Of a DNA stretch of 64,000 nt, positions 10,042-17,881 are shown piece after piece. The notes under the pieces were generated by a model. It was not told the origin of the DNA. It ran no database searches and worked only from the letters and a program-made list of their open reading frames with translations. The position numbers and the translations under genes are program-made. Source of the DNA: an uncultured Solirubrobacterales bacterium (GTDB taxonomy: Bacteria; Actinomycetota; Thermoleophilia; Solirubrobacterales; Solirubrobacteraceae). The DNA lies in the NCBI GenBank assembly GCA_963818815.1, contig CAWFTL010000004.1, positions 90,717 to 154,716 of the forward strand, read 5' to 3'. Every line of letters begins with the position of its first letter. Positions within the stretch are counted from its first letter, which is position 1.

Positions 10042-12261
10042 TCAGCGCTTGGAGATCGGGGCCAGGTCGGCCACGAGCTTTCGCTCCGAGCGGTCCTTGC
10101 TGAAGCGGATGACGACGATGCCACCCGGCTCGAGCCCCGTGACCACGCCCTCGCCGAACGACGGATGAGCCACGTCGTCCCCCAGGGCATAAGCCGCCGG
10201 CTGCCCGCCCCCCGCCCCACCCCACGAATCTCGATCGCCACTGCGCGCCGACGCCCACTGCGTCGCGCGGGCGCGCAGCCCGCCCGGCCGGCGCAGCTCC
10301 TGGGCCTCGTGATCGGTGAGCTCGGGAGGGATCTCGGCCACGAACCGGCTCGGCGCGCCGAAGTTCCGGGCCCCGAACACCGTCCGCGTCCGTGCGTAGG
10401 TGATGTACAGGTCGCGCTCGGCGCGAGTGATCCCGACGTAGCAGAGCCGCCGCTCCTCCTCCAGGCCGCCCTCGTCCAACGCCCGGGAATGCGGGAACAC
10501 CCCCTCCTCGCACCCGATCATGAACACGATCGGGTACTCGAGCCCCTTGGCGTTGTGCAGCGTCATCAACGTGACGAGCCCCTGATCGTCGGCTCGCGAG
10601 TCGGCGTCGGCGATCAGCGCCACCTGCTGGAGAAATTCACTAAGCGAATGGCCCTCCTCGCCGGCGTCGGACGCGTCGTACTCGGTGGCCACGTTGACCA
10701 GCTCCTCCAGGTTCTCGATCCGCCCCTGGGCCTCGATCGTCCGCTCGGCCTGCAGGGCCTCGAGGTAGCCCGTCTCGCGCAGGATCTCGCTGATCAGCTC
10801 GGCGATCGGAGTGTTTGCCGCCGCGCGTTCCGCGAGCACGTGCATCGTCCCCATGAAGCGCCTGAAGGCCTTGATCGCGGCGCCTCCCAGTCCGGGAACC
10901 TGCTCGGGATCCGAGGCCGCCTCCCAGATCGAGACGCCCATCGTGTTGGCATGTGCCAGCACCCGCGACAGCGAGGTCGAGCCGATCCCCCGCCGAGGCG
11001 AGTTGACGATGCGGGTGAACGCCCCCACGTCCTGCGGGTTGATGAGGGCCGTGAGGTAGGCGATCGCATCTTTGATCTCGGCGCGCTCGTAGAACTTCGT
11101 GCCCCCGATCACCTGGTAGCCGATCTCCGCCCGCACGAGCGTGTCCTCGAGCACGCGCGACTGGGCGTTGGTCCGGTAGAAGACCGCGATCTCCGACCGC
11201 GACGTGCCCTCGTCGAGCAGTCGCTGGAGCTCGCCCGTGACGTAGCGCGCCTCGGCGTGCTCGTCCTCGAGCTCGCGGACCTTGATCGGATCGCCCTGGC
11301 CGAGCTCGGTCCACAGCGACTTGGGCTTCTGCGCTCGGTTGTTGCGGATCACCGCGTTCGCTGCGTCGAGGATGGTCTGCGTCGAGCGGTAGTTCTGCTC
11401 GAGCTTGACGACGTGGGCATCCGGAAAGTCGTCGGTGAAGTTCAGGATGTTGCGGATGTCGGCCGAGCGAAAGCTGTAGATCGACTGCGCGTCGTCACCC
11501 ACGACCATCAGGTTCCGATGCTCCGAGGCGAGAAGCTGCAGCCAGCGGTACTGCGTGTGGTTGGTGTCCTGGTACTCGTCCACGAGCACGTAGCGGAACC
11601 CGTTTGCGTAGCGCTCGCGGACCTCGTCGAACATCTGCAGCACCTCGACCGCGCGGACGAGTAGGTCGTCGAAGTCCATCGCGTTCATGCGGTGCAGCTC
11701 GCGCTCGTAGCTGCGGTACACGTCGGCCACCGTCTGCTCGAAGAACGAGCCCACCATCTGCGCGTAGGCATCCGCGTTGCGCAGCTTGTTCTTCGCATCG
11801 GAGATCTGCGACTGCACAGCCGCCGGCGTGAAGCGCTTGGGATCGATACCCAGGTCGTCCAGACAGCGCTTCACGAGCCGCCGTGAGTCGGCCTGATCGT
11901 AGATCGTGAACTGGCGCGTGTAGCCAAGCCGGTCGGCGTGGGCGCGCAGCATCCGCGCGCACGCGGAGTGAAATGTCATGACCCACATCGCGCGCACGCG
12001 GCGGCCGACGAGCAGCCCGGCGCGATCGCGCATCTCCCCCGCGGCCTTGTTCGTGAACGTGATGGCCAGGATCTCGTCCGGCCGGGCAGCGCCGGTGGCG
12101 AGCAGGTGGGCGATCCTGTGCGTGAGGACTCGCGTCTTGCCCGACCCGGCCCCGGCGAGGATGAGCAGCGGCCCCTCACCGTAGGTGACGGCGTCTCGCT
12201 GGGGCTCGTTCAGCCCCTCGAGCAGGCCTCGGAGGTCCTCGCTGATGCCGGTCTCGGCCAC
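10042..12261 (-). CDS. pcrA: ATP-dependent DNA helicase PcrA/UvrD
   Basis: AGAGSGKT, TFTNKAA, DEYQDTN, VGDDAQSIY.FR, NYRST, TLHNAKGLEY, EERRL.YVGITRA and a C-terminal Tudor-like domain. Confidence 0.96.
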   Translation of the reverse strand: MAETGISEDLRGLLEGLNEPQRDAVTYGEGPLLILAGAGSGKTRVLTHRIAHLLATGAARPDEILAITFTNKAAGEMRDRAGLLVGRRVRAMWVMTFHSACARMLRAHADRLGYTRQFTIYDQADSRRLVKRCLDDLGIDPKRFTPAAVQSQISDAKNKLRNADAYAQMVGSFFEQTVADVYRSYERELHRMNAMDFDDLLVRAVEVLQMFDEVRERYANGFRYVLVDEYQDTNHTQYRWLQLLASEHRNLMVVGDDAQSIYSFRSADIRNILNFTDDFPDAHVVKLEQNYRSTQTILDAANAVIRNNRAQKPKSLWTELGQGDPIKVRELEDEHAEARYVTGELQRLLDEGTSRSEIAVFYRTNAQSRVLEDTLVRAEIGYQVIGGTKFYERAEIKDAIAYLTALINPQDVGAFTRIVNSPRRGIGSTSLSRVLAHANTMGVSIWEAASDPEQVPGLGGAAIKAFRRFMGTMHVLAERAAANTPIAELISEILRETGYLEALQAERTIEAQGRIENLEELVNVATEYDASDAGEEGHSLSEFLQQVALIADADSRADDQGLVTLMTLHNAKGLEYPIVFMIGCEEGVFPHSRALDEGGLEEERRLCYVGITRAERDLYITYARTRTVFGARNFGAPSRFVAEIPPELTDHEAQELRRPGGLRARATQWASARSGDRDSWGGAGGGQPAAYALGDDVAHPSFGEGVVTGLEPGGIVVIRFSKDRSERKLVADLAPISKR

Positions 12262-12286
12262 CTCTCAACGGTAGCGTCCGGGTCCG

Positions 12287-13195
12287 ATGCACCAGCTGCG
12301 CGCCGCCTGCGCCGAAGTCGCCCGAAATGCGCGTCATGTCCACCTCGTGCACGACGCGATCGCAGGCTATGCGGCGGCCCTGCCCGCGCACGTGAACGGC
12401 CCGGACGCGGATTCGCATCTGCACCGGGGTAGCCGCGAGGAGCTGGCCGCGTTCTGGCTCACGCTGGATGCGATCAACTTCGGCTCGGGGTGGTTTCCGA
12501 CGCTGCGCAAGCCGCCCGGGCGTTCGGGCTACGCGACGGTCGCCGCCGGCGTGCGCGAGCGCTTTGCCCGGGGCGGGCCCTGGAGCGCCTCAGAGCTCGC
12601 GCACATCGAGGTGCAGGAGATCGCTGAAGTCCTGGGCCAGCACCCCGGGCACGAGCTGATGGCCCTGTTTGCACGCTCGCTGCGCGACCTCGGCGAGCGC
12701 ACGTGCACGGAAGCGGACGGCCGGTTCGAGGCGCTCGTCGGCGCCGCGGGCGGTTCGGCAGTGGCGCTGGCCTGGCGCCTCGGCGGCTGGCCTTCGTTCG
12801 CCGACACGTCACGTTATGACGGGATCGACGTCCCGTTCCTCAAGCGGGCGCAGATCGCCGCCGCGGACCTGGCCCGCGCCGGGGTGGCGAGCTTCGCCGA
12901 CCTCGACCAGCTGACGATGTTCGCCGACAACCTCGTGCCGCACGTGCTCCGTCTGGACGGGATCCTGCGCTTCGACGCGGGCCTCGTGGCTCGGATCGAC
13001 CGGGGCGAGCTGGTCGCGCACGACTCCCCCGAGGAGATCGAGATCCGCGCCTGCGCGGTCCACGCCGTGGAGCTGATCGTCGCCGCCCGCCCGGGCAGAC
13101 CCGCCGCGGAGGTCGACCAGATCCTGTGGAACCGCGGCCAGCAGCCCCGCTACAAGGCCTCGCCCCGGCACCGCTGCCGGTGTACGGCGTATTGA
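12287..13195 (+). CDS. Queuosine salvage protein (DUF2419 / Qng1-like Q-nucleotide hydrolase)
   Basis: LDAINFGSGW, FLKRAQI, LTMFADNLVPHVLR..GIL, EIEIRA, DQ.LW and C-terminal RHR...Y resemble the family. Confidence 0.85.
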   Translation: MHQLRAACAEVARNARHVHLVHDAIAGYAAALPAHVNGPDADSHLHRGSREELAAFWLTLDAINFGSGWFPTLRKPPGRSGYATVAAGVRERFARGGPWSASELAHIEVQEIAEVLGQHPGHELMALFARSLRDLGERTCTEADGRFEALVGAAGGSAVALAWRLGGWPSFADTSRYDGIDVPFLKRAQIAAADLARAGVASFADLDQLTMFADNLVPHVLRLDGILRFDAGLVARIDRGELVAHDSPEEIEIRACAVHAVELIVAARPGRPAAEVDQILWNRGQQPRYKASPRHRCRCTAY

Positions 13196-13214
13196 GTGCG
13201 CCGTCCCGGCCGAT

Positions 13215-13251
13215 TTCGAGATTTCTGTGTCTATGGGACAGAAATCTCGAA
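13215..13251. repeat. AT-rich perfect palindrome between convergent genes
   Basis: TTCGAGATTTCTGT (13215-13228) / ACAGAAATCTCGAA (13238-13251), 14-bp stem. The loop GTCTATGGG contains CTATGG. Confidence 0.7.
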
Positions 13252-13262
13252 CGCGCGCCCGC

Positions 13263-14525
13263 TCAGCCCCGCCCCTCGACCGCCTCCCGCCGCGCCCGGA
13301 CGATCGCCTCGGCGCCCTCCTCGCCCACCAGGAGCTCGGCCCGGTGCGTGCGGCTCGCCGCCACGTCCACGGCCGGGAAGTGCCCGGCCGCGGCCAAGCG
13401 GCTGCTGAGGACCAGGACCGTGGTCTCGCCGCCCACCGGCGCCAAGGCCGTGGCCACGACGGTCAGCGATCCCCCGTCGACGATGTTCCGTGCGGCGGCG
13501 AGGGCCCGGCGCGCGGCGCCCGAATGCAGGCCGGCGAGCGTGTCGATCAGCACCACGACGTGCGCGCCCCGGGCCGCCATCCGCCGGCCCTGATCGACGA
13601 CCAGGTCGACGGCGTGACCCTGCGCATCGGAGGACGCCTCGAAGCTCACCGCGCTGGTCGGGGCCGTCTCGGCCTCGTTCCACTGCGCGATCTCCTCGGG
13701 CCTCACGCCCGCCAGCGCGATCGAGACCTCCACCCCATCCTCGGCTGCCAGCACCGCGGCGATCCGCCGCAGGAGCTCGGTCTTGCCCGAGCCCGCCGGT
13801 CCCGCGATCGTCACCCGCGATCCGCGGCCGAACGGGGCGACGGCCTCCACCGCCGCGAGCGCCTCATCGCCGAGCGCCAAGCGCTCGGTGGCGAAGGCCG
13901 CCGGCAGGTCCTCGAAGCGGCCGCCCGTCGCCTCCTCCACCGGCCGGCCGTTGACGGTTTCGACGCGGACCAGCGAGGCGAAGCGCTCCGAGCGCCGCGG
14001 CGCCCGCCGCGGACCGGCGATCCGGTCGCCCGAGACGAGCTCGCAGCGCTTGACCTGCGCAGCCGAGACGTAGACGTCGTGGTCCGAGGGCTCGGGCGGG
14101 TCGACGCGGATGAAGCCCGAGCCGTTGGGCAGGAGCTCGACGACGCCCTCAACGGTGTCCTCCTCGCGCGGTGCCGGGGCCGCGGCCTCGGGCGCCTCGG
14201 CGTCCGCCTCGGCCTCCGGAGCGGCCTCCGACTGCGCCTCCGGGCGGGCTTCCGCAGCCGGTTCTTCGGTCCGGGCGCGGCCCCCGCGGCGCGAACGGGT
14301 CCGGCGACGCGGCGCCGGCGCGTCCCCGGCAGCCTCAGCGTCCTCGGCGGCCTCGGAGGACGCGGACGCCTCCGGGGCGTCCCCGCCGTCTCCCTCGCCG
14401 AGGATCCTGTCGATCAGCTCGGCCCGGCGCAGCCGGCGGTAGCCGTCGATCGAGAGCTCCGAAGCGATCGCGTGAAGGTCGGCCAGCGGGCTGGCTTCAA
14501 GGGCGTCGCGGTCGAGCACGGACAT
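13263..14525 (-). CDS. Degenerate transcription termination factor Rho paralogue
   Basis: Rho N-terminal helical domain (LADLHAIASELSI.GYRRLRRAELI), OB-fold (GVVELLPNGSGF, DVYVSAAQVKR), PFGRG.R..I.GPAGSGKT, RPEE, AARNIVDGGSLTVVATAL, FPAVD, ELL. Internal deletions are present. Confidence 0.85.
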   Translation of the reverse strand: MSVLDRDALEASPLADLHAIASELSIDGYRRLRRAELIDRILGEGDGGDAPEASASSEAAEDAEAAGDAPAPRRRTRSRRGGRARTEEPAAEARPEAQSEAAPEAEADAEAPEAAAPAPREEDTVEGVVELLPNGSGFIRVDPPEPSDHDVYVSAAQVKRCELVSGDRIAGPRRAPRRSERFASLVRVETVNGRPVEEATGGRFEDLPAAFATERLALGDEALAAVEAVAPFGRGSRVTIAGPAGSGKTELLRRIAAVLAAEDGVEVSIALAGVRPEEIAQWNEAETAPTSAVSFEASSDAQGHAVDLVVDQGRRMAARGAHVVVLIDTLAGLHSGAARRALAAARNIVDGGSLTVVATALAPVGGETTVLVLSSRLAAAGHFPAVDVAASRTHRAELLVGEEGAEAIVRARREAVEGRG

Positions 14526-14613
14526 TCGTTACCTCCTGGTATGCGGGTTAGCTCCGGCCGCGTCGAGGCAGCGGCCGACGATCCTCAATCTAGCGGCCGG
14601 CGCGGATGCGCGG

Positions 14614-15229
14614 TCAGGCCGGGGGCGGGGGTACCGAGCCCTCGGGGCCCCACGGCGCCACGGCCGGGGACGCCGGGACCGTCGGCATGCCGTACGCATC
14701 GCCGGCGCTCTCGAACCGGACGAAGCCGGTCTGTCCCGCGAACGAGCCCTCGCGCATCCCGAACGACCCCACGAGCACGGCCAGTGCCCCGGCGAGCGCG
14801 ACATAGCCGCCGGTGGCCGGGTGCAGCACGCCGTCCGGTCCGGGCGGCACGAGCACCCGATAGAGCGCCAGCACCGCCGCCAGGGCGCCTGCGGCGCCAA
14901 GCAGCCCCGGCAGGGCAACCGCCCGGCCCGAGTACGCCAGCAGAGCCAACCCGCCCGCCACGATCCCGACGACCAGCAGCACGATGTCGATCGTCTGAAA
15001 GACCTGCCAGGCGTTCACGTGCAGCGGCCCGAGCTGGCGCGCGAGCTCCAGGCCCTGGTGCACCAGCGGCGCGAAGGCGCCCAGCTGCTGCGCCGTCTGA
15101 TCGACCTGATTGATCAGCGCACGGCGGGATCTCGAGCCGATACCAGGGCAGCCACAGGCTGACCACGATCGCGCCCGCCCCGAGCGCGACGGTGAAATGG
15201 CCCCACCCGGTGCGGGCTTCGGGCTCCAT
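14614..15229 (-). pseudogene. LPWY-family membrane protein split by a single-base frameshift near 15121-15126
   Basis: MEPEARTG...SLWLPWYRLEIP is in one frame and ALINQVDQ...NAWQVF...LYRVLVPPGP...GGYVAL in another. Removing one base joins them. Confidence 0.7.
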
Positions 15230-15293
15230 GGCGTCCAGATCGGCCGATCCGGGGCTGGGCTTGAGGCCGGCAGGGCCCGAGCCGGACGGTCGC

Positions 15294-16202
15294 TCAGCCG
15301 GTCCGTCGCTCCCAGCGCAACTCGTCGGCCAGTCGCGCTCCGGGGTCGAGCTCCCGGTCGCCGTCGAGGGCTTCCTGCACGGCCATGAAGTCGGCCACCG
15401 CGGCGACGTCGTGCACACGCAGCATGTGCGCGCCGGATCGCACGCCGTGGCCGGCCGCGGCGAGCGTGCCGGCCAGCCTCGCCCGGGGCGCACGGCCCGT
15501 GAGCACGCCGATGAAGTCCTTGCGCGAGACAGCCAGCAGCACGGGCCGCTCGAGCGCATGCAGCTCGCCGAGCCGGCGCAGCATCTCGATCGTCTGCGCC
15601 GGCGTCTTGGCGAAGTCGGGACCGGGATCGAGCATCAGCTGCTCGAACGCCACGCCGCGTGCCGTGGCGAGCTCGATCCGCTCCCGCAAGAAGGCGAGCA
15701 CGTCCTCCATGACGCGGCCGTCGAGGCCGGCGTCGAAGTACTTCTCCTTCGGCGCAGCGAGCGTGTGCATGAGCACGAGACCGGCCCCCGTCTGCGCGCA
15801 GACGTCGGCCAATCCGGGATCGCGCAGGCCGCTCACGTCGTTGACGATGCACGCCCCCGCCTCGATCGCCGCCTGCGCCACCCGGGGCTTGTACGTGTCC
15901 ACGGACACCGGGACCCCGAGCTCTCTCGTCACGGCCTCGATCAGCGGCACGACGCGAGCGACCTCCTCCTCCGGCTCGACCGCCGGCCGGTTGGTCACGC
16001 CCGACTCCCCGCCGATATCGATCAGCCGCGCGCCCGCCTGCACCAGCGAGCGCGCCAGCGCCACGCGGTCCTCGAGGCCGCGCCCGCCGTCTCCGTCCGA
16101 GAACGAATCCGGGGTCGCGTTGACGATTCCCATGAGCCAAGGCCGCCCGCCCAGCTCCAGCTCGCCCGCCGCCGTCCGAAGCGTTCGCGGCGGCGGCCTC
16201 AC
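15294..16202 (-). CDS. folP: Dihydropteroate synthase
   Basis: MGIVNATPDSFSDG, IDIGGES, SVDTYK, IVNDVSG, DPGPDFAKT, SRKDFIG, RVHDV. Confidence 0.95.
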   Translation of the reverse strand: MRPPPRTLRTAAGELELGGRPWLMGIVNATPDSFSDGDGGRGLEDRVALARSLVQAGARLIDIGGESGVTNRPAVEPEEEVARVVPLIEAVTRELGVPVSVDTYKPRVAQAAIEAGACIVNDVSGLRDPGLADVCAQTGAGLVLMHTLAAPKEKYFDAGLDGRVMEDVLAFLRERIELATARGVAFEQLMLDPGPDFAKTPAQTIEMLRRLGELHALERPVLLAVSRKDFIGVLTGRAPRARLAGTLAAAGHGVRSGAHMLRVHDVAAVADFMAVQEALDGDRELDPGARLADELRWERRTG

Positions 16203-17881
16203 GTCGCCTCCGCCGAGATCCCCTCGGCGCCGGCCTCGGCGCGGAAGCGCTCCACCTCCAGGTCAACGCGGCGCTCGTCCCATCCGAGCTCCTCGCCGAT
16301 CGCGCGCGCCACCCGCAACGGCACCTCGCTACCGGCTGTGCCCACCTCGCGGCCGGCCAGCAACCCCAGCCGCGTACGCCGCAGCAGAACGTCGGCCACC
16401 GTGCCGGCCTGCTCGTTGCGGGCCGCGAAGGGGGCCTCGGCCAGGAGGTCCGGCAGCCCCGCGACGATCGGCTGGGCCAGCTCGCCGCGCTCCGCGGCGA
16501 CGGCGAGGACGTGCTCGGCGGCGTGGCCGTAGCGCCCGGCCAGGGCAGCGTAGGAGTCCTCCGGCACGCCCTCCACGCGCGCCAGCTGCGCAGGATCGGT
16601 CGGTGCACCGAGGGGAATCTCGTGCGTCCGGCACGGCGCGTTGCGCCCGTCGCGCTCGACCAACCGGTCGACGGCCAGCTTGGCCATCCGCCGCCACGTC
16701 GTGAGCTTCCCGCCCGTGATCGTGATCAGGCCGCTCGAGGTCTCGTACAGCTCAGCCTTGCGCGAGATGTCCACCGACTTTCGCGAGTCGCCGGTCGAGA
16801 TCAGCGGCCGCACGCCGGCGTAGGCGCCGACCAGGTCGTCCGGTCCGAGCGTCGTGCCGAAGAAGCCGTTGGTCGCCTCGAGCAGGTAGCGGACGTCATC
16901 GGGGTCGGGCTGGACGTGGTCGACGTCGCCGTCGTAGTTGTTGTCAGTGGTCCCGACGAGGCTCCGGCCCAGCCAGGGCAGGGCGAAGATCGAGCGCCCC
17001 TCGGGCGCGGGGACGATCGCGCCGGCCACCAGCGGCAGCTCGGACGCCGAGAGCATCACGTGGGTGCCGCGGCTGGGCACGATGCGGGGGACCTCAGCCT
17101 CGGAGTGAAGCTCCTCGGGGCGGATGCGGTCGGCCCACACTCCCGTGGCGTTGACCACGTTCTCGGCCCGCACGAGGAGCTCCCGGTCGCTGGCGTGATC
17201 GCGCACCCGCAGCCCTGGGCCGTCGCCGTTTTCTCCCACCAGCTCGACCACCTCGAGCCGGTTGGCGCAGATCGCGCCGAAGCGCTCGGCCTCGCCCAGC
17301 ACGGTCAGCACGAGGCGCACGTCGTCGGTCTGGCAGTCATAGAACAGATAGCCGCCGGTCGGCTCGCGGCCGCGCAGGGCGGGCAGCAGCTCCGCCGCCT
17401 CCTCGCCCGAGATCACGCGGTGGCGCTCCGGGCTCCAGTCGGCCTCGTTGTCCTCTCCCAGAGCCCGCTCGGCCCGGCGCGCGCTGCGCCGCCCGCGCAG
17501 GCGGGGCGTGGCCATGACGTCGTACATGTTCAGCCCGATCCCCATCAGGCGGTCGGGCCTGGCCCCGTTGAAGGCGGGCACGACCAGCGGCAGCGGGTGC
17601 ACGAGATGCGGGGCCAGCTTGACCATCAGCTGGCGCTCGAGCAGGGCCTCGCGCACGAGCCCCAGGTCGAAGTTCTGCAGGTAGCGCAATCCCCCGTGGA
17701 CGAGCTTGGAGGAACGGCTGCTGGTGCCGGCCGCAAAGTCGGCCTTCTCGAGCAGCGCGACGCTGTATCCGCGCGAGGCCGCGTCCAGGGCGACGCCGGC
17801 CCCCGTGATCCCGCCGCCGATCACCGCCACGTCGAACTCCTCGGAGGCGAGGATCTCGATCGCCCGCTCGCGCGTGAGCAT
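16199..17881 (-). CDS. glpD: FAD-dependent glycerol-3-phosphate dehydrogenase/oxidase
   Basis: IGGGITGAGVALDAASRG, GTSSRSSKLVHGGLRYL, NATGVWAD, AGVRPL, GGKLTTWR. Confidence 0.93.
   Translation of the reverse strand: MLTRERAIEILASEEFDVAVIGGGITGAGVALDAASRGYSVALLEKADFAAGTSSRSSKLVHGGLRYLQNFDLGLVREALLERQLMVKLAPHLVHPLPLVVPAFNGARPDRLMGIGLNMYDVMATPRLRGRRSARRAERALGEDNEADWSPERHRVISGEEAAELLPALRGREPTGGYLFYDCQTDDVRLVLTVLGEAERFGAICANRLEVVELVGENGDGPGLRVRDHASDRELLVRAENVVNATGVWADRIRPEELHSEAEVPRIVPSRGTHVMLSASELPLVAGAIVPAPEGRSIFALPWLGRSLVGTTDNNYDGDVDHVQPDPDDVRYLLEATNGFFGTTLGPDDLVGAYAGVRPLISTGDSRKSVDISRKAELYETSSGLITITGGKLTTWRRMAKLAVDRLVERDGRNAPCRTHEIPLGAPTDPAQLARVEGVPEDSYAALAGRYGHAAEHVLAVAAERGELAQPIVAGLPDLLAEAPFAARNEQAGTVADVLLRRTRLGLLAGREVGTAGSEVPLRVARAIGEELGWDERRVDLEVERFRAEAGAEGISAEAT

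Follow-up and report, generated by a model that had tools for sequence, protein, structure and literature searches.

Transcription termination factor Rho is usually seen as a motor, driven by ATP and indispensable. The way in which it halts RNA polymerase remains a matter of debate between tethered tracking and an allosteric 'stand-by' mechanism. The canonical protein of Escherichia coli (PDB 1PV4/3ICE) consists of three domains, an N-terminal helix bundle (Rho_N), an oligonucleotide/oligosaccharide-binding (OB) domain and a RecA-type ATPase domain. The actinobacterial 'type 2' Rho of Mycobacterium tuberculosis (PDB 7OQH) has a disordered Arg-rich insertion separating its helix bundle from the OB domain; it keeps all catalytic residues and both RNA-translocation loops and works as an ATP-dependent motor (PMC4499133, PMC8828861). 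In a single sentence, the main text of Moreira et al. (2024; NAR, PMC11347177) names two species as exceptions, Baekduia soli and Conexibacter woesei, which carry only 'Rho-like sequences' and are counted there as lacking a functional Rho; both belong to the order Solirubrobacterales. Here we describe a gene of this kind, P0001, at positions 13263-14525 on the minus strand of a 64,000-nucleotide stretch of DNA (hereafter the window; contig CAWFTL010000004.1, positions 90,717 to 154,716) from an uncultured Solirubrobacterales bacterium. P0001 is the only descendant of Rho in its lineage, and from its sequence we consider it moderately probable that the encoded protein is a derivative of Rho that binds RNA and ATP without translocating.

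Domain architecture and motif states of P0001

P0001 is a complete coding sequence of 420 codons plus TGA with an ATG start. It is preceded by a Shine-Dalgarno sequence, AGGAGG (14532-14537), 6 nt 5' of the ATG, and its N-terminus agrees with the family consensus MSVLDRxALEASPLADLH. All features of the gene given below lie, like the gene itself, on the minus strand. The protein has the same three-domain layout as canonical Rho. Residues 1-44 (14394-14525) form the Rho_N helix bundle, detected by PF07498 with 33.8 bits over residues 9-42 and conserved at 0.88 in the family. They are followed by a disordered acidic insert, residues 45-122 (14160-14393), with a predicted local distance difference test (pLDDT) score below 50 and a conservation of 0.45 outside R74-R85; these nearly invariant residues lie in an Arg-rich block, PRRRTRSRRGGRART (14268-14312). 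An insert of this kind is known from actinobacterial 'type 2' Rho, where it occupies the same place between helix bundle and OB domain. The OB-fold primary RNA-binding domain spans residues 123-200 (13926-14159; PF07497 Rho_RNA_bind, 76.3 bits over residues 125-197), and a degenerate RecA-type domain, corresponding to the C-terminal domain of Rho, spans residues 223-420 (13266-13859), as supported by pLDDT, Foldseek and the ratio of nonsynonymous to synonymous substitution rates (dN/dS).

The degenerate domain is folded according to the structural model. In the AlphaFold2 monomer, residues 223-420 have pLDDT values of ~85-96, and residues 45-120 are modelled as disordered. The top 50 PDB matches of the model in Foldseek are all Rho chains (E ~1e-23), placing the domain in the RecA-type fold, and the closest PDB sequences are likewise all Rho, from Thermus, Thermotoga, E. 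coli and M. tuberculosis. The profiles for Rho score below their cut-offs. P0001 scores 179.7 bits with the Rho equivalog model NF006886, far under its cut-off of 315, and 166.9 bits with TIGR00767, far under 509.45; the model NF041509 (paralog_Rho2), for a 'short form' paralogue that accompanies a full-length Rho, gives 128.2 bits against a cut-off of 628, and Pfam ATP-synt_ab matches only partially, over residues 224-331. 'Rho-like' as used in the main text of Moreira et al. (2024) denotes proteins with the N-terminal domain plus the RNA-binding one and no recognisable Rho ATPase domain. P0001 falls under this description in that Rho_N and Rho_RNA_bind are detected, the NCBIfam models for the Rho ATPase fail, and the organism belongs to Solirubrobacterales.

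P0001 was aligned with E. coli Rho (reference sequence PDB 1pv4_A, 419/419 residues identical), with canonical Rho of the same class and with Rho-like proteins of the same order. The primary RNA-binding site of the OB domain is retained, F138, R140, D150, Y152, E180 and R181 corresponding to F64, R66, D78, Y80, E108 and R109 of E. coli, with Y110 replaced by F182. Rho_N and an OB domain bearing the primary-site residues, which together mark a protein as Rho, are thus both present, and the description of P0001 in the first-pass annotation as a Rho derivative with an intact primary RNA-binding apparatus is borne out.

In the RecA-type domain, the nucleotide pocket is shared with canonical Rho, but the catalytic and RNA-translocating elements differ. 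The Walker A motif GPAGSGKT (residues 242-249; 13779-13802) is kept, K248 and T249 matching K184 and T185. In the motif LAGVRPEE (residues 271-278; 13692-13715), which aligns with LIDERPEE of E. coli, D210 is replaced by Gly and the catalytic E211 by Val (V274). The Arg valve of Rho is R212 (PMC8828861), and its equivalent R275 is kept together with E277/E278, the counterparts of E214/E215. The Walker B strand VVVLIDTLAGL (13527-13559) keeps D328 (D265 in E. coli), and its segment DTLAGL (residues 328-333), equivalent to DSITRL, carries the changes T268 to Ala and R269 to Gly. E. coli residues 272-293, which comprise the whole Q-loop, are deleted after residue 334 (22 residues). E. coli residues 326-338 of the R-loop segment, K326 included, have no counterpart (13 residues), and the pentapeptide GGETT (13419-13433), invariant in an alignment of 196 family sequences, occupies the site of this deletion. 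The secondary RNA-binding site of Rho (Q-loop ~278-290, R-loop ~322-326, K326) is accordingly missing. In SRTHRAELL (residues 391-399; 13329-13355), aligned with SGTRKEELL, the Arg finger R366 is replaced by His (H394), and residues 393-419, the final 27 of E. coli Rho, are absent.

The alignment confirms every sequence change quoted in the first-pass annotation (Walker A, LAGVRPEE, DTLAGL, the two loop deletions and SRTHRAELL), and its claim that the catalytic and RNA-translocation elements are lost holds, with E211 and R366 replaced and both loops deleted. A single label was mistaken: the Arg missing from DSITRL, which it called the Arg valve, is R269, and the valve itself persists as R275. 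Hidden frame errors were considered as a source of the odd residues of P0001; the alternative frames contain no consensus peptides, and the departures from the family consensus are point substitutions.

Distribution, descent and constraint of the Rho-like protein

Motif states were counted in 196 distinct intact sequences of the window's family (f1). G247-K248-[T/S]249, the Walker B D328 and the primary-site residues of the OB domain are each invariant in 196/196, R275 and E277/E278 are invariant or nearly so, and GGETT, which includes E367, is invariant. The position of the catalytic E211 is Val, Ala or Ile in all 196 sequences. At the Arg-finger position R366 the family has Ile, Leu, Met or Val, and the adjacent R395 is Arg or Lys in 191 of the 196. 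A Phe aligned with E. coli F355, which we take to be the adenine-stacking residue, is found in 175. The interface motif SGT-x-R-x-ELLVG is also highly conserved; in Rho, this region reaches across the subunit interface and carries the trans-acting Arg finger. Peptides of the family are matched in 407 species genomes.

No second Rho accompanies P0001. The genome (3.15 Mb in 5 contigs, 95% complete) encodes NusG, and a search of it with the TIGR00767 profile found only P0001 besides weak matches of ATP-synthase type, as did tblastn with E. coli Rho and the Rho of two relatives, which found only the P0001 locus. The first-pass annotation had called P0001 a paralogue, had proposed looking for a canonical rho elsewhere in the genome, and had held that its reading would suffer if P0001 were the only rho and an active one; the term paralogue has to be dropped, as no other Rho was detected by either search, and the first part of that proviso describes what was found.

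The same state extends through the order. Names of the source organisms of homologues place the bacterium in Solirubrobacterales, family Solirubrobacteraceae. The 41 genomes compared from the same genus and order include no Rho above the cut-off; the degenerate form is present in 39 of them. A survey of 121 genomes of the class revealed three states, canonical, motor-less and absent. Canonical Rho occurs in 53 of them with 537-667 bits, families f8, f10 and f11 having mostly 615-667 bits. It is found in none of the 21 genomes of Solirubrobacterales in the survey, an order in which only degenerate forms were seen (125-307 bits). Neither Rho nor the Rho OB domain was detected in families f7, f9 and f12 of the class (G041-G096), nor in one 1.6-Mb genome of the order (G034). 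In a sample of the phylum Actinomycetota, canonical Rho is present in 57 of 61 genomes. A separate motor-dead Rho, arising from an event independent of Solirubrobacterales, was observed in the actinomycetotal family f38 (G190:C1:247500-251500). Its Walker A motif is destroyed (GVTKGALVT), R212 is replaced by Ala (VDEAPEE) and the Walker B Asp by His (VVLHSLTRL); its C-terminus is truncated, the Q-loop is still there, and the protein has a long insert rich in Arg, Asp and Glu. Beside the Solirubrobacterales protein, this independent case suggests a recurrent evolutionary route.

In a maximum-likelihood tree, all Rho-like proteins of the order form one clade, with a support of 100 in the Shimodaira-Hasegawa-like approximate likelihood ratio test, and this clade, P0001 included, lies inside the Rho of Actinomycetota. 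Its stem measures 1.25 substitutions per site, and branch lengths within the clade exceed those in canonical Rho several-fold. Among 120 homologues, the mean frequency of the most common residue is 0.81 in the ATPase-like domain, 0.88 in the OB domain and 0.45 in the linker. The dN/dS ratio was calculated for the closest pairs within a genus, with canonical Rho of family f10 for comparison; it is 0.06-0.13 in the OB domain vs 0.025 in f10, 0.12-0.22 in the ATPase-like domain vs 0.04 in f10, and 0.38-0.62 in the linker, for which f10 offers no comparison, the absolute values being rough since dS is compressed at 73% G+C. Because these ratios are low yet above those of f10, the Rho-like protein is under constraint, but looser constraint than a working Rho. 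The low ratios, together with the 196 distinct intact family members and their invariant motifs, support the earlier view that selection rather than decay shaped the protein; the comparison of orthologues that had been proposed as a check gives no sign of the relaxed selection of a pseudogene, dN/dS being well below 1 in the folded domains.

The motor was lost in different ways in different families of the order. In f1, K184 is kept and E211 is lost. Family f4 keeps D210-E211-R212, has K184 changed to Arg or Ala and has no Q-loop. Family f2 has loops of about the original length, with K184 changed to Ala or Thr and E211 to Val or Ala, and in f3 K184 is changed to Ala and E211 is also replaced, within the same range of substitutions. 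The RNA-binding head is conserved in all families of the order. This mosaic is most simply read as follows: the need for a motor ceased once, close to the base of the order, and catalysis then decayed independently in each family; the base of the order is also where the long stem and the relocation of the gene fall.

Broken copies of the gene were observed in a few same-genus assemblies with few contigs (L161/G045, L162/G004 and L163/G003), in which glpD, folP, pcrA and the Rho-like gene are each spread over 2-5 frames. As glpD, folP and pcrA are equally frameshifted there, the broken Rho-like copies are evidently systematic indel errors and not pseudogenes, and low hidden Markov model scores or 'truncated' genes from those assemblies should not be read as pseudogenes.

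The existence of such proteins is already on record (Moreira et al. 2024), and nothing further was found in the literature on Solirubrobacter and Rho. The main text of that paper, with its one sentence on two species, reports neither the folded P-loop remnant nor the order-wide state nor the mosaic loss. To our knowledge, and within the literature searched, the persistence of a folded, selected, P-loop-bearing ATPase module appears to be new, as do the order-wide monophyletic state, the relocation of the gene and the mosaic loss of motifs between families.

Mode of action and alternative explanations

Rho in Solirubrobacterales seems to have a job that needs no motor. In the history that we propose, rho would have left the neighbourhood of thrB or rpmE-prfA at or near the base of the order and settled downstream of glpD-folP, where it would then have evolved 5-10 times faster. 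An ATP-driven RNA translocase would no longer have been needed, and the catalytic residues would have been lost differently in each family. In f1, strict purifying selection maintains the helix bundle, the OB primary site and the Arg-rich disordered insert, and also a RecA-like domain that is folded and whose nucleotide pocket is complete (GK[TS], the Walker B Asp, the Phe equivalent to F355 and the R212 equivalent), the interface motif SGT-x-R-x-ELLVG and the new invariant GGETT. The protein has neither the catalytic Glu nor the canonical Arg finger; R269 is gone, and so are the Q- and R-loops, which in Rho hold RNA in the central channel.

A protein of this make-up would be expected to bind pyrimidine-rich single-stranded RNA through the primary site on its N-terminal face, and by analogy with other actinobacterial Rho the Arg-rich insert probably helps in this binding. 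ATP would be bound at the subunit interfaces and hydrolysed poorly or not at all. The likely parallel is the alpha subunit of F1-ATPase, a member of the same RecA/F1 superfamily, in which a P-loop binds nucleotide without a catalytic carboxylate and the nucleotide is structural or regulatory. P0001 may be likened to it in combining a P-loop with the loss of the carboxylate, but F1-ATPase alpha belongs to another family and assembly and always stands beside a catalytic partner, whereas P0001 has no such partner. RNA would be neither threaded nor translocated through the ring, so the protein would act by binding and not by pulling, as an oligomer that binds RNA on nascent or free transcripts and that nucleotide stabilises or switches. 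The protein's possible roles include pausing or termination while bound to RNA polymerase, protection of RNA or of R-loops, and chaperoning.

The first of these roles can be worded more sharply. Cryo-EM (cryo-electron microscopy) 'stand-by' complexes contain Rho that is open, catalytically inactive and already attached to RNA polymerase (PMC12360218, review). By analogy with this 'stand-by' or allosteric pathway, which was proposed from pre-termination complexes of E. coli, the Solirubrobacterales protein might be a natural 'separation-of-function' Rho, a ring or open ring to which ATP and pyrimidine-rich nascent RNA bind and which, without translocating, silences or terminates transcription while sitting on RNA polymerase, ATP binding serving only as a switch of assembly or conformation. 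We regard this specific version as speculative and rather unlikely, although it would, if true, mean that a whole bacterial order shows the effect of Rho on RNA polymerase to be separable from its motor.

Several points weigh against a non-translocating Rho derivative descended directly from the canonical gene. The P-loop Lys, the Walker B Asp, R275, R395 and the new Glu E367 are strictly conserved, which an ATPase with residual or re-wired activity would explain too. The deep placement of the clade is weakly supported and prone to long-branch artefacts, and direct descent would leave the same picture as an ancient duplication after which the canonical copy was lost. The compression of dS noted above adds to these.

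The first of these points leads to the best surviving alternative, that P0001 is a working if unusual motor-driven terminator in which E367 or E277/E278 serves as the general base, R395 as a shifted Arg finger, and other channel residues move the RNA. Such a protein would account for GK[TS], the Walker B Asp, the R212 equivalent, R395 (Arg or Lys in 191/196) and GGETT being invariant or nearly so, for the conserved interface motif, and for the near-universal presence of the gene in the order. It is hard to reconcile with a catalytic-Glu position that is hydrophobic in 196/196 sequences and with the deletion of both RNA-translocation loops (22 and 13 residues), E. coli Rho mutants in E211, R366 and the Q- and R-loops being defective in termination. 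Moreover, other families of the clade have no P-loop Lys, so hydrolysis is dispensable for the function that preserves the Rho-like protein, and substitutions accumulate over the whole protein at several times the rate seen in canonical Rho. On this balance we consider a working terminator improbable.

A further account is decay, with which the accelerated evolution would agree. Under it, rho would be dispensable and the gene a relic heading for loss; in its favour, three further families of the class and one small genome of the order have no Rho, and copies of the gene are broken in some relatives. The breaks are artefacts of assembly, however, since glpD, folP and pcrA are equally broken. 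Intact reading frames in 196 distinct family sequences, the 407 species genomes that match family peptides, dN/dS far under 1 throughout the folded domains and dozens of invariant residues make a relic very improbable.

The first-pass annotation had itself suggested a pseudo-ATPase paralogue that joins hexamers of canonical Rho and poisons or modulates them as anti-terminator or dominant-negative subunit, which would suit an intact interface motif combined with dead catalysis; this is the least credible account and can hardly apply, because the proposed partner is missing from the genome and from the sampled genomes of the order (0/41 and 0/21), a canonical rho in the unassembled ~5% is unlikely when the relatives are also without one, and a cell without canonical Rho has no hexamer to poison.

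A non-translocating Rho derivative therefore stays the preferred reading, and its interest is practical as well as mechanistic. An abundant soil order that keeps the RNA-recognition head and the nucleotide pocket would amount to a natural experiment on Rho without movement along RNA, and cultured Conexibacter and Solirubrobacter make a motor-less Rho testable. The family is named 'Rho termination factor N-terminal domain-containing protein' at NCBI and 'transcription termination factor Rho' at JGI. Thousands of motor-less proteins carry the JGI label, so inferences on Rho-dependent termination in Thermoleophilia that are drawn from annotation only are unsafe.

Gene neighbourhood and relocation

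The genes around P0001 occupy positions 10042-17881 of the window. Upstream and co-oriented with it on the minus strand are glpD (16199-17881) and folP (15294-16202), both identified with Pfam. On the other side lie, according to the comparison of neighbourhoods, a queuosine-salvage gene on the plus strand (12287-13195), convergent to P0001, and pcrA/uvrD on the minus strand (10042-12261). The order glpD, folP, a variable small gene and the Rho-like gene, followed by queuosine salvage and pcrA/uvrD, is found in most Solirubrobacteraceae. In the family, folP lies upstream of the Rho-like gene at 57 of 60 loci. The linkage of glpD, folP and the Rho-like gene is found in f1, f2 and f3; f4 is represented by one examined locus, where glpD alone was detected adjoining the Rho-like gene. 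Linkage to pcrA and the queuosine-salvage gene is confined to the family level. The glpD-folP linkage across the order offers no clue to the function of the Rho-like protein.

In the sister families, canonical rho has thrB upstream or rpmE-prfA downstream. Both thrB and rpmE-prfA of the window's genome lie elsewhere, on contig C1. At the rpmE-prfA locus of this genome no remnant of rho was found beside rpmE, and the gap at this locus appears to encode an unrelated protein with a signal-peptide-like start. As the Rho-like gene is off the canonical locus, its orthology to rho is drawn from its single-copy status and the tree.

Two minor features were observed near the ends of P0001. A weak terminator-like hairpin with a T-rich tail (13248-13265, minus strand) overlaps the stop codon of the gene; it is the sole such site in 2.5 kb, shuffled sequences having 0.4 on average, and may be due to chance. 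Between folP and P0001, a gene for a small membrane protein is inserted on the minus strand (14614-15229). It is split over two frames, MEPEARTGWGHFTVALGAGAIVVSLWLPWYRLEIPP (15229-15122) and then ALINQVDQTAQQLG... (15120-14614), and the extra base at ~15121 could be either an indel of the long-read assembly or a real frameshift. A recognisable homologue of this small gene stands at the same position in 3 of 60 related loci.

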